Sequence record: NC_079175.1
DNA length: 53,040 nucleotides
From: Escherichia phage PO103-1
Strand: one strand, 5' to 3'
The position numbers and the translations under genes are program-made. The stretch's first letter is position 1. Every line of letters starts with the position of its first letter. Positions 40,763-52,770 of the stretch are shown here, in pieces. A model generated the notes under the pieces. That model was not told the DNA's origin and made no database searches. It was given only the letters and a program-made list of their open reading frames with translations.

Positions 40763-41403
40763 AGGAACTCTCCAATTTTCGATTCAGTGTTTGTGACTTC
40801 TCTTCTCATCTTTTGGCCCAGGAACAGGCCACAGGGTAGCGCAGGAAGGCCGAAAATCGGGCCGCTGCCTACCGTTTGTGTCAATTCTGGATAACTGCAT
40901 TGGCGAAGGGTTACTCCCGTTAGGGTGCGATACGCTAATCACATGAGTGTTGTCGCCTTGCGGCTCAGGCGTGTCACAGAGGCTTTGCAACCCTTCCCAA
41001 TACATTCACCCAATCCACCTGCTTTGGCATAGCTGGTGGCGCGGTTTTGTGCGGATTATGCCACTCTAAGCCCTGTTTGTCCGACTTCCTCAGAGCACCA
41101 GCAGCTTGTGGCACAAACCTATTTTCGAATGACTAACATAAGCATGAGGCATAACCCTCTAATTATTCAGCCCTAACAGCTTGCTTATTTAGTTCCAATT
41201 CATCCCAATACATCGCCTATAACAAGTGAATAGCTTTTCTGCGAAGAAGTATTCCGGCCCTATGGCCTATGTTAAAAGATAAATGTAATATGATGGAAAC
41301 ATTCCATCGAAAAGAACTTTGTAGAACGAATCGAACGTTCTCACACGCCTTGGTACCAGACGGACTACCTAGTTACAAAGTTCTTATCTGATGTTGTTTC
41401 AAT

Positions 41404-41420
41404 TCCAACTAATGTCGAAT
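41404..41420 (-). promoter_or_regulatory. Early-region conserved motif copy
   Basis: attcgACATTAGTTGGA at the edge of the 40763-41408 non-coding block. Confidence 0.3.
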
Positions 41421-41585
41421 GTCTTTCTTGCAAACAGGACAAGTGATAAATCTATATGCGAAATATCCTCGGTCATTCTTACCTGTGTATATCTTTAAGT
41501 CCGAGAATTCATAAGACACAACAGAAGCACATAACCGACATTGGCGTGTGAAGGTTACTGTATCTTTTTCCAGAACTTTAATCAT
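41409..41585 (-). CDS. Small zinc-ribbon protein
   Basis: About 59 aa from ATG with GGAG 6 nt upstream; CRLC...CPVC pairs; the motif copy overlaps its RBS. Confidence 0.45.
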   Translation of the reverse strand: MIKVLEKDTVTFTRQCRLCASVVSYEFSDLKIYTGKNDRGYFAYRFITCPVCKKDIRH

Positions 41586-41590
41586 TTCAT

Positions 41591-41608
41591 CTCCAACTAA
41601 TGTTTCAG
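41591..41608 (-). promoter_or_regulatory. Early-region conserved motif copy
   Basis: ctgaaACATTAGTTGGAG; its GGAG doubles as the RBS of the zinc-ribbon gene. Confidence 0.35.
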
Positions 41609-41731
41609 AATTATTCCAATATTCCAAACAAAAAGAATAATAAGAATAAATTAAATAAATGAAGAAAGTGCTTGACACCCATTTGGCGATAAGTGTATAA
41701 TGCCTTTCTTCCCTAAGTGGTCAGAATCAAA

Positions 41732-41748
41732 TCCCACTAATGTTTCAG
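41732..41748 (-). promoter_or_regulatory. Early-region conserved motif copy
   Basis: ctgaaACATTAGTGGGA in an intergenic stretch. Confidence 0.35.
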
Positions 41749-41812
41749 ACTAAAGCCGAAGGCCAATGCGAGCACAAAACCCGCTTGGCACTTCGAAGAA
41801 ACCCGCCTGGAA

Positions 41813-42052
41813 CTATAGTGTTTTCCAGTCTGAGTCAAATAGCTCTTTCGGTCGTGTGTAGATAGTAGAAGAATCAATACTCAAGAAAGTATGGTCCCCG
41901 TACTTCTTCACCTCTTGGTAAGCAAACCCATCCACCCAACTTCCGCAGTGAGTTTTAATCTTTGTAGGTCCAAGAATACGATAGAAAGTGTTTCGAGGCT
42001 GGTGGTGAACAATCAATCCAGCCTCAAGTTCAGCGATATTTAAATCACGCAT
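41813..42052 (-). CDS. Hypothetical protein
   Basis: 79-aa ORF. Confidence 0.4.
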   Translation of the reverse strand: MRDLNIAELEAGLIVHHQPRNTFYRILGPTKIKTHCGSWVDGFAYQEVKKYGDHTFLSIDSSTIYTRPKELFDSDWKTL

Positions 42053-42662
42053 TTAAGAATAGTATTCCCTCAGAGAAAATGTAGTCACTTCCATAATCTC
42101 TGGTGATTGCATCCCAATCAATATATGGTGCAAGTCGGCCTGGAATATCCAGTGCCTCACTTTGCTTCAAATATTCTGTAATTGAGTCGCAACGTGTGAT
42201 GAACATGTCGTTCAAATCATCCACAGTGAAAATATCAATCTCACCACTGCGGAATGCTGCAAGAATTACATCCAAATCGGTGTCAACAAGCAGCTCATTG
42301 AACTTATCATATTTACGAATGCTGAATAGCCCATTGGCAAAGCAAACTTCGGTAACATCTTCTTCGTTTGATTCAATTACGTCATATGTGCCGTCTTCTG
42401 GATATTCAATGCCGTATTCTTCATGCAAATACTCCCGCATGTCGAAATCATAGTGACGCCAAGACAGGCCATCAACCCACGCATCTACAAATTCAGAATT
42501 AGTTTCGCCTGTGTAGAAACGAACCAATAAGGTTTCATCTCTACGCCAGGACTTAAGCTGTTCTACTGCTTGAGCAATGTTATCGTTTTGCATTGAGTTT
42601 CTCCCACATACCTTGAAGTTCCGCATTAAGGATTTTGAGCTGTTCAATTCGCTCTTTTCCAC
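42045..42662 (-). CDS. Acidic protein, ArdA-like anti-restriction candidate
   Basis: Strongly acidic; C-terminal PYIDWDAITRDYGSDYIFSEG resembles the ArdA C-terminus as I recall it; true start may be an internal Met. Confidence 0.4.
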   Translation of the reverse strand: MEKSELNSSKSLMRNFKVCGRNSMQNDNIAQAVEQLKSWRRDETLLVRFYTGETNSEFVDAWVDGLSWRHYDFDMREYLHEEYGIEYPEDGTYDVIESNEEDVTEVCFANGLFSIRKYDKFNELLVDTDLDVILAAFRSGEIDIFTVDDLNDMFITRCDSITEYLKQSEALDIPGRLAPYIDWDAITRDYGSDYIFSEGILFLNA

Positions 42663-42870
42663 TCTTCACTAACATGTCTAAGATGGCGGTTTTCTCTTTG
42701 TATGATACTAGATAGCAGCACCTGCCAACCTCAATTTCGTGCCTCAGACTACGAGAATCTTGCACATGATTTGACAAATGCTGGTGGAGTTCTGCCTCTG
42801 CACGAGTCGTACGCTCTTGCATTCGCTCTAGTTCTTTCGGTATTTCCTGATATTCCATCGGATGCTCCAT
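42580..42870 (-). CDS. Hypothetical protein
   Basis: 96-aa ORF. Confidence 0.35.
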   Translation of the reverse strand: MEHPMEYQEIPKELERMQERTTRAEAELHQHLSNHVQDSRSLRHEIEVGRCCYLVSYKEKTAILDMLVKSGKERIEQLKILNAELQGMWEKLNAKR

Positions 42871-42878
42871 TGATGAAG

Positions 42879-43274
42879 TTATGCTGGAAGTTCGAAGTGT
42901 GGTGCATCAAGGAACTTGGCCCATTTCACTGGCTTAGTGAAGGTCCGTTCCCATGTTCCGCCCCAACGAATGACAACTCCAAGCTCTTCTGCGGCTTTGA
43001 ACATGTGTTCAGCTACAATTTGGAATCGTTCGAGGTCATTCCAGTCAATTGGGTACGGCGCAATGTCCAAAGCGTTGCCTGACATGTGTCGGCTAACTGA
43101 AACTTTGGTTGCACCCTGTTTTAACAGTTCTTGTTGACGTTCATAAGAGCGTAAACCTTCCAAAACAGCTACATCAAAAGGCATCGTTTCACATGCACGT
43201 TTGAAAACTGCAACTAATGAAGGATTTACTCCCTTAAGTCGGTCTAAAGAACGTTGACCGAGCTTAACATTCAT
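42879..43274 (-). CDS. Peptidase M15 family cell-wall endopeptidase (T5-type endolysin-like)
   Basis: SRHMSGNALDIAPY, IDWNDLERF and APHFEL closely parallel the T5 L-alanyl-D-glutamate peptidase motifs as I recall them. Confidence 0.75.
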   Translation of the reverse strand: MNVKLGQRSLDRLKGVNPSLVAVFKRACETMPFDVAVLEGLRSYERQQELLKQGATKVSVSRHMSGNALDIAPYPIDWNDLERFQIVAEHMFKAAEELGVVIRWGGTWERTFTKPVKWAKFLDAPHFELPA

Positions 43275-44289: not shown

Positions 44290-44315
44290 GAGGCCACTCG
44301 AAGTGGAATGGCCTC
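44290..44315 (-). terminator. Hairpin terminator candidate
   Basis: About 10-bp stem (GAGGCCATTC/GAGTGGCCTC) 6 nt after the stop of 44322..45224, followed by U-rich GAUUAAUUAUU. Confidence 0.45.
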
Positions 44316-45696: not shown

Positions 45697-45771
45697 GATT
45701 AAGATTCTCTTAAGTTAATTACAGTTTAAGTTTCAGTGACATTGCTAACCACGGAATAGCTTTGTCCCTCA

Positions 45772-45794
45772 TATCCAACTAGTGCTAGATTAAT
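45772..45794 (-). promoter_or_regulatory. Early-region motif copy, extended GATTAATC subfamily
   Basis: gattaatctagcACTAGTTGGAt about 75 nt upstream of 45322..45696. Confidence 0.35.
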
Positions 45795-46137: not shown

Positions 46138-46162
46138 CTTTATTCTCCAATTATTATTCACA

Positions 46163-46184
46163 ATCAACTAATGTTAGATTAATC
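46163..46184 (-). promoter_or_regulatory. Early-region motif copy, extended GATTAATC subfamily
   Basis: gattaatctaACATTAGTTGAt about 30 nt upstream of the DUF4326-like gene. Confidence 0.35.
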
Positions 46185-50738: not shown

Positions 50739-52679
50739 TTATTGACAGAAGTAGTAAGCGTGTTCGCTCATCAGAAGCTCTTCGGTTACGATGTTCTCAT
50801 GATACATCTGAATGCCACCAAGTTGCTTAGACAGATTCTCGAATTGATTGTTGGTTACAAAGATTTCAACATATGCTGCACGAATAACTTCCATCATACG
50901 TGGAGCATCTGCCAAACAGCAACGGAAACAATCATGGATTGAAGTGAAGCCACGAAGACCAGCTTCTTTAGCTTTAACTGCAACAGTACGAGCAACAAGT
51001 GCATCAATACCTTGAATGTAGTTAACAACGAAAGTACGCTTGAATTCTTCTTTAGTTGGATTGGATTCACGAATGGTCCAAGGCTTATTCTCCTGAATCT
51101 GACCAAAGATAACACGAGTTTGGCTGTCAACACGAATGCTGAATGCCTCACAGATTTCACGAGATGGGAAGCAAGGCTTCATTACAACCTGACCATCAGT
51201 GTGACGGTATGTGATGTACTCTTTACCAAGTTCAACACAACGGTTGTATGCAGCATCAGCAGCTTTCTCAATGAACATGTTAATCTTAGCACCCAATGCG
51301 TTATGGATTGCTTCCACACACAGTTCAGCAAATGCCTCAGCTTTCTCCATAGGAATCTGGAGAGCTTCTGTCATGTAGCTAATGAAGTCAGATGAACCAG
51401 TTAATGCAGCTTTACCACCACCGTATTGAATGGCCATGTAAGGAGTTTTGATAAACTTACGACCAGCTTTCGGATTCAAGAATTCATCCATGATTTCAGC
51501 AGATGGTTTCATTGAAGAACGGTCGAGTAACTTCAACAGCTCACGAAGACTCAACTGGTATGGGTCAGATGCTTTAGTCTCAGAATCAACCAGACCTGTT
51601 GCACGAGCCATTTCCATGTTACCAGCAATGAATGCCAGATATTGAGTACCAGAACATTTAGCATCTAATCCAAAGCCTACACGAGAATCGCATTCACCTG
51701 TAGTCTCAAACTTGAACCAATCCAGAGCCAGACGAACATAAGTGAATGGCTTAGAAGGACGTTCAGCTTTAGGCATGTTCATCATGCGAGCAAGTGAACC
51801 AGCTGGATTCTGAGCAACATAAGTTAAACGCTTAGCACTGCACCATTCACCACCAGAAATATCTTCCAGCTCTGCCATGAACATGTTGTATGCAATGGTA
51901 GTAGAACCATCTTCGTTAAACTTCTTAACGATGTTCTCAACATTGTGAGAATACAAGCAACGAGCAAAGTCAGAGGATTGTGGGTTAGGACCAGCACATG
52001 CTACATGATACAGGCGACCACGGTTATCAGCAAAGTAGTCAGAATACAGTGTGTCCTGATTCATCATTGCTACAGCATTGTTCCAAACATGGAGTTCAGT
52101 CTGGATTGCTTCTGGCATCTGCAAGCCACCGTAGGTACGTTGTTCAAGCATGGACTGGATGATGCGAACCATCTCAGTCTCCACATGGTACTCAGTATCT
52201 TGCAGGAATTCGATTGCAGCTTTCAGAGTCTTGGATGGCTTAACTTTGCCACCTTTAACGAAAGGCTTGCGACGAGATTCAGATGTAACACGCTCAGTGA
52301 ATGGCACTGCGGTGTCTTTGGTTGTAACCAGTTCAACCCATGTGTCAGTCTGTTGGAATGACTTGTCTTCGTTCATGGTTATGAAGCCAAAGTGCTTAGC
52401 CAGACCAATGAGGTTGATAGCTGGGTCAACATAGTGCATTGCTTTCAAATCGTTGTTGTAGCGGTTGGCATCAGCAATAGAAGCAGAAGCCAGCTCAACC
52501 ATCGCAATGGCAGGAACAACGTCGTCACGTGTGAAAGACGTCATCATCTTGAATATGGCTAAGGCAGCAATAGCACAAGTCTGAGGCTGCATATAGTTCT
52601 GCTTCTCTTTGGCACGGTATACCAGAGCAGTGATAGCAGGAACAACAGATTTGATAGTTTGAGTGGTGATAGTAGTCAT
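50739..52679 (-). CDS. Single-subunit DNA-dependent RNA polymerase (T7-like, compact)
   Basis: 646 aa; GLDAKCSGTQYLAFIAG, RKFIKTPYMAIQYGGG and SIHDCF parallel T7 RNAP DGSCSGIQHFSAML, RSVTKRSVMTLAYGS and HDSFGT; GGAG 8 nt upstream of ATG. Confidence 0.85.
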   Translation of the reverse strand: MTTITTQTIKSVVPAITALVYRAKEKQNYMQPQTCAIAALAIFKMMTSFTRDDVVPAIAMVELASASIADANRYNNDLKAMHYVDPAINLIGLAKHFGFITMNEDKSFQQTDTWVELVTTKDTAVPFTERVTSESRRKPFVKGGKVKPSKTLKAAIEFLQDTEYHVETEMVRIIQSMLEQRTYGGLQMPEAIQTELHVWNNAVAMMNQDTLYSDYFADNRGRLYHVACAGPNPQSSDFARCLYSHNVENIVKKFNEDGSTTIAYNMFMAELEDISGGEWCSAKRLTYVAQNPAGSLARMMNMPKAERPSKPFTYVRLALDWFKFETTGECDSRVGFGLDAKCSGTQYLAFIAGNMEMARATGLVDSETKASDPYQLSLRELLKLLDRSSMKPSAEIMDEFLNPKAGRKFIKTPYMAIQYGGGKAALTGSSDFISYMTEALQIPMEKAEAFAELCVEAIHNALGAKINMFIEKAADAAYNRCVELGKEYITYRHTDGQVVMKPCFPSREICEAFSIRVDSQTRVIFGQIQENKPWTIRESNPTKEEFKRTFVVNYIQGIDALVARTVAVKAKEAGLRGFTSIHDCFRCCLADAPRMMEVIRAAYVEIFVTNNQFENLSKQLGGIQMYHENIVTEELLMSEHAYYFCQ

Positions 52680-52749
52680 TTGTAAGTCTCCAAGATTGTG
52701 TATGATTTAACTGAAACGGATTATAATAGCGTAGCCATTACACAATTCA

Positions 52750-52770
52750 CTTCCAACTAATATCACAAAC
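52750..52770 (-). promoter_or_regulatory. Early-region conserved motif copy upstream of the RNA polymerase gene
   Basis: gtgatATTAGTTGGAAG about 75 nt upstream of the RNAP ATG; a TATAAT hexamer lies about 30 nt further downstream. Confidence 0.35.

Follow-up and report, generated by a model that had tools for sequence, protein, structure and literature searches.

A highly acidic protein encoded on the minus strand of Escherichia phage PO103-1 (NC_079175.1), within 42045-42662, raises the question of whether a phage of this kind carries a genuine ArdA, an anti-restriction protein that mimics DNA, or a protein that only resembles one. The window analysed, meaning the whole stretch of 53,040 bp to which all coordinates refer, corresponds approximately to the complete genome of a Carltongylesvirus-like E. 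coli myophage (Chaseviridae, Cleopatravirinae). A first-pass annotation made from the sequence alone had proposed an ArdA-like candidate DNA mimic, and this proposal is supported by transitive Pfam membership, profile-profile comparison, fold and conserved residues, with the activity itself read from the family. We consider it likely that the gene encodes a divergent but genuine 182-aa member of the ArdA family, belonging to a clade confined to Chaseviridae phages, which by homology would act as an anti-restriction DNA mimic.

In regard to the gene itself, the acidic open reading frame (ORF) described earlier is present on the minus strand, with GRLAPYIDWDAITRDYGSDYIFSEG near the C-terminus of its translation. 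In its mechanical form (42045..42662) it starts at a GTG and specifies 205 aa. Translation almost certainly begins instead at the ATG at 42593 (182 aa), because a Shine-Dalgarno (SD) sequence lies 6 nt upstream, because the lengths and the alignment of the homologues agree with it, and because the additional 5′ codons lie inside the upstream gene. Nearly all full-length homologues have 180-185 aa and their alignment begins at the Met of this ATG, while an identical SD-ATG arrangement, 'GGGAGAAactcaATG', is tabulated for the 182-aa ORF26 of phage ST32 (PMC6266442). The 5′ extension is probably not translated as a part of the ArdA protein.

42045..42593, minus strand: ArdA-family coding sequence, 182 aa plus stop codon (42045-42047), likeliest start ATG 42593
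42600..42605, minus strand: Shine-Dalgarno sequence GGGAGA, 6 nt upstream of ATG 42593, found by sequence inspection
42594..42662, minus strand: 5′ extension of the mechanical ORF (GTG 42662), 23 codons, inside the upstream gene in another frame; residues missing from full-length homologues

The description of the protein as highly acidic holds. The 182-aa form has an isoelectric point (pI) of 4.05, with 41 Asp+Glu vs. 14 Lys+Arg and a net charge of -27 (the pI of the 205-aa form is 4.22), which makes it the most acidic among the minus-strand ORFs of at least 100 aa in the window. All 20-residue windows along the 182-aa protein are neutral or negative. Its charge and pI (-27/4.05) are of the same large negative order as the medians of a set of 25 canonical ArdA proteins of 156-171 aa (-28/4.05), and the net charge across the phage family ranges from -15 to -35, with a median of -23.

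The resemblance to ArdA which the first-pass annotation had noticed in the C-terminal segment is genuine and exceeds what chance would give. By itself it is marginal, given that BLASTP against a validated plasmid ArdA recovers only a C-terminal match of 42 residues (E 0.004), and it becomes decisive together with the profile and structure tests. A search of 5.8 billion proteins yielded 51 homologues, and an exhaustive profile search 169 cluster representatives. Two homologues, P0049 and P0050, share 39% identity with the query over at least 94% of its length (E 5e-33 and 1e-29) and reach 37.3 and 36.1 bits with the Pfam ArdA model PF07275, thus exceeding its gathering score of 27 bits. The same model is matched by 27 of the 31 members of the full-length family alignment (E <= 0.01; best E 3e-12), and by 25/25 proteins of the canonical set (best E 1e-33). 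In the hhalign comparison of the 31-member family profile with the 25 canonical ArdAs, a probability of 99.8% and an E of 4.4e-28 were obtained over 147 columns, spanning residues 27-182 of the phage protein and 6-163 of the template, i.e. approximately the whole ArdA, so that the homology extends over the whole protein. The family profile also matches the plasmid ArdA WP_000129958 (probability 96.4%, E 1e-9), an experimentally validated protein which was used in the screens of Silas et al. and whose sequence was taken from their supplement. In an alignment of 13 homologous sequences, 30 columns are invariant. PHROG 14321, 'anti-restriction protein', is matched end to end (E 9e-51), its label being derived from the same GenBank annotations that orthologues of the gene carry.

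Other candidates emerging from these searches were rejected. With the 13-sequence profile, the archaeal primase PriL obtained an E of 0.009, against 0.027 for ArdA; this is a short helical chance match of about 60 residues, without support from the fold search. Pfam DUF6429 and HTH_33 (E 0.01-0.2) stayed under the threshold, and NCBIfam holds no model that matches the protein or its homologues.

The fold leads to the same family. The AlphaFold2 (AF2) model, with a predicted local distance difference test (pLDDT) of 88.8 and a predicted template-modelling score (pTM) of 0.80, has one significant match in the PDB according to Foldseek, namely the Tn916 ArdA structure 2w82 (E 1.2e-4, probability 1.0, template-modelling scores 0.54/0.59, 177 columns), and a second method likewise gives 2w82 as the only significant fold match in the PDB. 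The model shares the elongated three-domain architecture of 2w82 (beta/alpha, helical, beta/alpha), with an identity to the Tn916 protein of only 16-19%. The layout is given below with approximate boundaries, the domains being defined after McMahon 2009 (PMC2731889).

42534..42593, minus strand: residues 1-20, N-terminal helix (helix 2-14 in the model) with SWRRDE motif; AF2 secondary structure, pLDDT 68-75
42366..42533, minus strand: residues 21-76, approximately ArdA domain 1; strands 22-27, 35-40 and 69-75, helices 42-47 and 52-60
42222..42365, minus strand: residues 77-124, approximately the helical ArdA domain 2, which holds F114 (aligned with Tn916 F91)
42048..42221, minus strand: residues 125-182, approximately ArdA domain 3 (dimerisation), the portion that matches Pfam ArdA directly
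42114..42158, minus strand: residues 146-160 (EALDIPGRLAPYIDW), counterpart of the ArdA 'anti-restriction motif' by alignment with Tn916 126-140

In the Tn916 protein, residues F91, Y137, I138 and F161 are described as essential, the last of them within the 'VF motif'; Y137 forms hydrogen bonds to D139 and D146 of the partner subunit, and residues 126-140, the 'anti-restriction motif', form the dimer interface (PMC2731889). Residues were compared by aligning the family with the canonical set and with 2w82 (residues 1-162 from the search alignments). All four essential residues are conserved, as F114, Y157, I158 and F179, and L178-F179 aligns with I160-F161 of the VF motif. Likewise, the interface residues P131, L134, D139 and D146 correspond to P151, L154, D159 and D166. 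Membership in the ArdA family can be regarded as settled, because the transitive Pfam membership, the profile-profile match, the fold and the key residues agree.

The N-terminal helix is specific for the clade, having no counterpart in Tn916 or plasmid ArdA; the Tn916 protein opens at the first beta strand. The SWRRDE motif of this helix is conserved, and its SWRR portion forms a basic patch. Residues 6-62 of the family profile (approximately 42408-42578) also weakly match YqaI of the B. subtilis skin element (PDB 2dsm, E 0.0023), which ranks beside ArdA; judged by this match, YqaI could be a stand-alone relative of ArdA domain 1, similar to sArdN.

As for the mechanism, the ArdA dimer mimics about 42 bp of bent B-form DNA and fills the DNA-binding site of type I restriction-modification (R-M) enzymes, thereby blocking restriction and often modification (PMC2731889). 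By homology, the phage protein would adopt the elongated three-domain architecture, and its C-terminal domain would dimerise head-to-head through an interface of Y157-I158-D159 and D166. The spiral of Asp and Glu carboxylates on the dimer would then imitate the phosphate backbone of bent B-form DNA, and with the DNA site of a type I enzyme occupied, the unmodified phage genome would be neither cut nor methylated. What the analysis shows is the family membership, the fold, the charge and the conserved structural and interface residues, while dimer formation, HsdMS binding, restriction alleviation and the timing of expression are what we infer.

The genome offers targets for such enzymes, since nine characterised type I enzymes have 106 recognition sites in it altogether. 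No general avoidance of type I sites was found genome-wide, only the EcoKI sites being mildly low (2 vs. 8). Avoidance of type I sites, or a site-free region ahead of the gene, has been reported for some Autographiviridae; in the 11 kb between the RNA polymerase (RNAP) end and the ArdA gene (the leading 20.7%) no depletion was found, with 29 sites vs. 22 expected. With 106 sites and no general avoidance, a trans-acting inhibitor would therefore be useful.

A different pattern is shown by GATC, which occurs once (38978) in the 53,040 bp vs. about 165 sites expected (second-order Markov model, standard deviation 12; observed/expected 0.01), with CTAG as the next lowest palindromic tetramer at 0.68. 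The scarcity is common to phiEcoM-GJ1 (2 in 50 kb vs. about 189 expected) and to the fragments of the phages Mangalitsa and Ecp_YSF. The pattern suggests that enzymes recognising GATC (Dam/MutH, or restriction of the MboI/DpnII type) have exerted selection throughout the lineage, and that GATC avoidance is a second anti-restriction strategy beside ArdA.

The first-pass annotation had furthermore called the protein early-expressed, and this turned out to be an assumption, as the gene is separated from the RNAP end by about 10 kb and stands behind promoters of the phage-RNAP type, not of the host sigma-70 type. The window is oriented as the reverse complement of the reference phage phiEcoM-GJ1, and every long ORF is carried by its minus strand. 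The gene order runs from a T7-like single-subunit RNA polymerase (50739..52679) through a block of small genes to the replication module and then the structural module, and the ArdA gene is located in the pre-replication small-gene block. In the phiEcoM-GJ1 record, the sole annotated host sigma-70 promoter precedes the RNAP gene, and the remaining genes, including gp22, stand behind phage-specific promoters. From these annotated promoters the motif ACATTAGTTGGATGTGA was taken, and with up to 3 mismatches allowed it was found in 10 copies in the window, 10/10 of them on the minus (coding) strand, vs. 0.17 expected.

52747, 50405, 49554, 46158, 45769, 41727, 41587, 41399, 39433, 31748, minus strand: start coordinates of the ACATTAGTTGGATGTGA copies (motif scan)
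45769..45785, minus strand: nearest ACATTAGTTGGATGTGA copy upstream of the ArdA gene, ahead of the gene for the single-stranded DNA-binding protein (SSB), 3 mismatches (motif scan)
46158-46174, minus strand: second upstream ACATTAGTTGGATGTGA copy, ahead of the SSB gene (motif scan)

The copies at 45769-45785 and 46158-46174 may serve as promoters for the unit in which the ArdA gene is transcribed, most likely by the T7-like RNAP of the phage itself. By analogy with T7, the gene would be a class II ('middle') gene and not an immediate-early one like ocr. On the coding strand, neither sigma-70 promoters nor terminators by which an early ArdA transcript could be delimited exceeded the shuffle expectation. 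Ahead of the RNAP gene itself, where the annotation of phiEcoM-GJ1 shows a sigma-70 promoter and no other, the window has a ACATTAGTTGGATGTGA copy with 2 mismatches (52747-52763). Inside the putative SSB-to-ArdA unit, between a gene of 300 aa and the next one, there is a 10-bp GC-rich hairpin (GAGGCCATTCCACTTCGAGTGGCCTC) at 44290-44315 on the minus strand, which may act as an attenuator or terminator ahead of the ArdA gene.

A perfect sigma-70 consensus (TTGACA-N18-TATAAT, about 0.05 expected) occurs just once in the genome, at 41672-41701 on the plus strand, antisense to every gene. It lies about 110 bp downstream of the gene equivalent to gp23 of phiEcoM-GJ1, beside an AT-rich tract, points into the gp23-like and ArdA genes, and stands among three stacked ACATTAGTTGGATGTGA motifs (41399-41415, 41587-41603 and 41727-41743). 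Mangalitsa, Ecp_YSF and phiEcoM-GJ1 (10540-10569, minus strand) have the site with hardly a base changed. From it, the host RNAP would transcribe 41813-42593, and with it the ArdA gene, in antisense. Another possibility is that the site marks a replication origin similar to the primary origin of T7. An Rfam scan of 41300-42700 returned nothing beyond noise (CrcZ, 16 bits vs. a threshold of 95 bits), and the RNA downstream of the antisense promoter folds weakly (z -2.2).

The immediate surroundings of the gene are as follows.

42580..42870, minus strand: upstream gene, 96 aa as listed, whose end overlaps the ArdA start by 14 nt (ATGCAAAACGATAA)
41813..42052, minus strand: downstream gene, 79 aa, PHROG 2652, equivalent of phiEcoM-GJ1 gp23, whose ATG overlaps the ArdA stop by 8 nt
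42879-43274, minus strand: endolysin, an L-Ala-D-Glu peptidase of the M15 family (PHROG 465, E 5e-54; Pfam Peptidase_M15_4)

Because of the overlaps of 14 and 8 nt, the arrangement suggests that the ArdA gene is translationally coupled to both neighbours. Profile searches with the upstream gene gave no significant family match, and no functional clue was found in the neighbouring genes searched. The endolysin gene is situated two genes upstream of the ArdA gene, within the pre-replication small-gene block, an unusual place for a lysis gene, a long way from the structural genes and also from where phiEcoM-GJ1 has the gene annotated as an Rz-like spanin.

The 3-kb surroundings of the ArdA gene are 94% identical to those in Escherichia phage Ecp_YSF and 85-93% identical to those in Mangalitsa, MLP1 and the Yersinia PYps phages. 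A mosaic patch at 42000-42399 coincides with the 3′ two-thirds of the ArdA gene, i.e. the part coding for domains 2-3. There, identity to Ecp_YSF, otherwise the closest genome, is 80-84%, with flanks of 97-100%, while identity to Mangalitsa, which diverges elsewhere, is 97-99%. Further mosaic patches are present at 41400-41599 and 42600-42799. The pattern suggests that close relatives have exchanged alleles of the anti-restriction gene.

Several of these results, and some others, weigh against the protein being an ArdA that protects incoming DNA. A check with the PF07275 hidden Markov model, which had been proposed beforehand, formally failed: ArdA is the top Pfam match, at 17.6 bits (E 0.006), below the 27 bits of the gathering score. 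The match extends over residues 98-171 and profile positions 87-145 of 155, and the direct sequence match to ArdA is limited to the C-terminal third of the protein. A single-sequence phmmer search against PDB sequences did not find ArdA, and returned only chance matches (PriL and an LPXTG protein, E ~0.9). Some acids listed as conserved across the Tn916 dimer interface have non-acidic counterparts in the phage protein (R134 for D109, S137 for D112 and S145 for E123). Furthermore, the features of Ocr, namely entry as the first gene, transcription by the host RNAP and strong sigma-70 promoters, are absent here. Relatives of the phage are described as headful-packaged (PMC6989608). Given this packaging, the position of the gene and the phage-type promoters, timely protection of incoming DNA would be hard to account for. 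Finally, the literature that could be searched yielded no experiment on a Chaseviridae ArdA. As regards family membership, the sub-threshold PF07275 score is a failure of sensitivity and not an exclusion from ArdA, and the columns of D109, D112 and E123 vary among canonical ArdAs too.

Other explanations were also considered. One proposal is that the protein is an ArdA-fold DNA mimic whose main target is not type I R-M, but BREX (PglX), type III enzymes, or host DNA-binding regulators and nucleoid proteins; we regard this as unlikely. In such a case, the N-terminal helix and the middle-class expression would reflect the different job. The divergence of the clade below the Pfam cut-off, the extra helix with its basic SWRR patch missing in canonical ArdA, and the apparent transcription from phage-RNAP promoters of a gene that is not the first to enter would fit such a shift, as would the behaviour of related mimics, given that Ocr, a multi-target mimic, inhibits BREX (PMC7261183) and that effects of ArdA proteins on host gene expression have been reported (PMC13300388, PMC10746416). 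However, type I R-M is inhibited by all ArdAs tested, the residues that determine the fold and the dimer interface are conserved, no particular alternative target is indicated by the evidence, and additional targets would supplement type I inhibition and not replace it. Related to this, the clade-specific helix, the phage-RNAP transcription and the conserved antisense sigma-70 promoter lead to a reading in which the Chaseviridae ArdA clade is a functionally shifted mimic, protecting replicating and not incoming DNA, or targeting BREX and type III enzymes as well. Its expression would perhaps be gated by host-RNAP antisense transcription, possibly so that decoy sensors of DNA mimics (e.g. Ronin, PARIS) are not set off. 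We give this reading, too, a rather low probability.

That the gene is a degenerate relic, which has kept the ArdA fold and lost the anti-restriction activity, is very improbable. The Pfam score under the threshold and the replaced acidic positions of the interface would be expected of a relic, but the full-length conservation in 57 phage records, the 30 invariant columns, the high negative charge kept across the family and the translational coupling to the neighbours speak against it and argue for purifying selection for function. A fortuitous resemblance, with the gene encoding an unrelated acidic phage protein, e.g. a structural one, is effectively refuted and retains hardly any probability at all. 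It could draw on the label 'tail fiber protein' given to orthologues at 73-85% identity, and on the PriL profile match (E 0.009) that stood above ArdA in one search. Nevertheless, the PriL match comprises some 60 helical residues with a marginal E and no structural support, the gene is situated in the left arm, which is non-structural, well away from the tail module, and both the hhalign E of 4.4e-28 to canonical ArdA and the only significant PDB fold match, found by two methods, point to ArdA. The assignment to a divergent but genuine ArdA thus stays the one we favour.

In regard to its distribution, tblastn placed the clade in 57 phage records from Escherichia, Yersinia, Erwinia, Aeromonas and other hosts, all with genomes of approximately 52-56 kb and with identities down to 26%. 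A tblastn search of 72,556 plasmids gave no match, and on these searches the clade seems to occur in phages only. The 'tail fiber protein' label is carried by the orthologues of MLP1 and PYps3T/4T/16T/23T (OK148439/NC_079176 for MLP1; MW147598-600, MW147602 and NC_079177 for PYps) and is almost certainly an annotation error. On the other hand, the Bp7 protein, Mangalitsa gp24, ST32 ORF26, PYps16N and others are already labelled '(putative) antirestriction protein', and phiEcoM-GJ1 gp22 is annotated as 'anti-restriction protein, similar to NP_511210 and NP_857871'. The identification as ArdA is therefore already in the databases, and what is new here is its support at the level of profiles, structure and residues, together with the under-calling of the clade by Pfam.

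It follows from the above that Carltongylesvirus and other Chaseviridae carry a protein with a genuine ArdA fold, on support stronger than the BLAST-derived GenBank labels, and that the occurrence of ArdA extends beyond conjugative elements. The Pfam ArdA model under-detects the Chaseviridae phage clade, and wrong 'tail fiber protein' labels are exposed on some orthologues. For the host range in phage therapy, a relative insensitivity of Chaseviridae phages to type I R-M would be predicted. The current understanding is unchanged, and the presumed expression timing is at odds with the Ocr paradigm.

Compared with known systems, the closest are the orthologues of phiEcoM-GJ1 gp22 (ST32 ORF26, Mangalitsa gp24, and those of vB_EcoP_Bp7, PYps16N, Faunus and 4HA13), which have the same length and the same place between the endolysin and the gp23-like gene. 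Protein identity amounts to 97.8% with Bp7, 96.7% with Mangalitsa, 86% with Ecp_YSF and 78% with GJ1 gp22. Canonical ArdA (Tn916 Orf18, PDB 2w82; the plasmid ArdAs of ColIb-P9, R64 and pKM101; WP_000129958) is similar to the phage protein in size, net charge and pI, whereas the phage protein has an extra N-terminal helix of about 20 residues. Its clade resides on virulent myophages, and canonical ArdA on conjugative elements. Conjugative ardA genes are driven by leading-region single-stranded DNA promoters; they differ in this from the gene in the window, which is apparently under a phage RNAP promoter.

The C-terminal domain of ArdA alone (sArdC) is reported as sufficient for anti-restriction (PMC12548430). 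While sArdC and sArdN are single-domain proteins, the phage protein comprises three domains and the extension, with the C-terminal domain as its best-conserved part. T7 Ocr (gp0.3) is a functional analogue, being likewise a phage-encoded, highly acidic and dimeric DNA mimic that blocks type I R-M, in a phage which also has a single-subunit RNAP. However, its fold and sequence are unrelated to those of the protein studied here, and no search with that protein gave a match to Ocr. Moreover, ocr enters the cell ahead of all other genes and relies on the host RNAP for its transcription, while the ArdA gene of PO103-1 lies about 10 kb in, behind promoters of the phage type.

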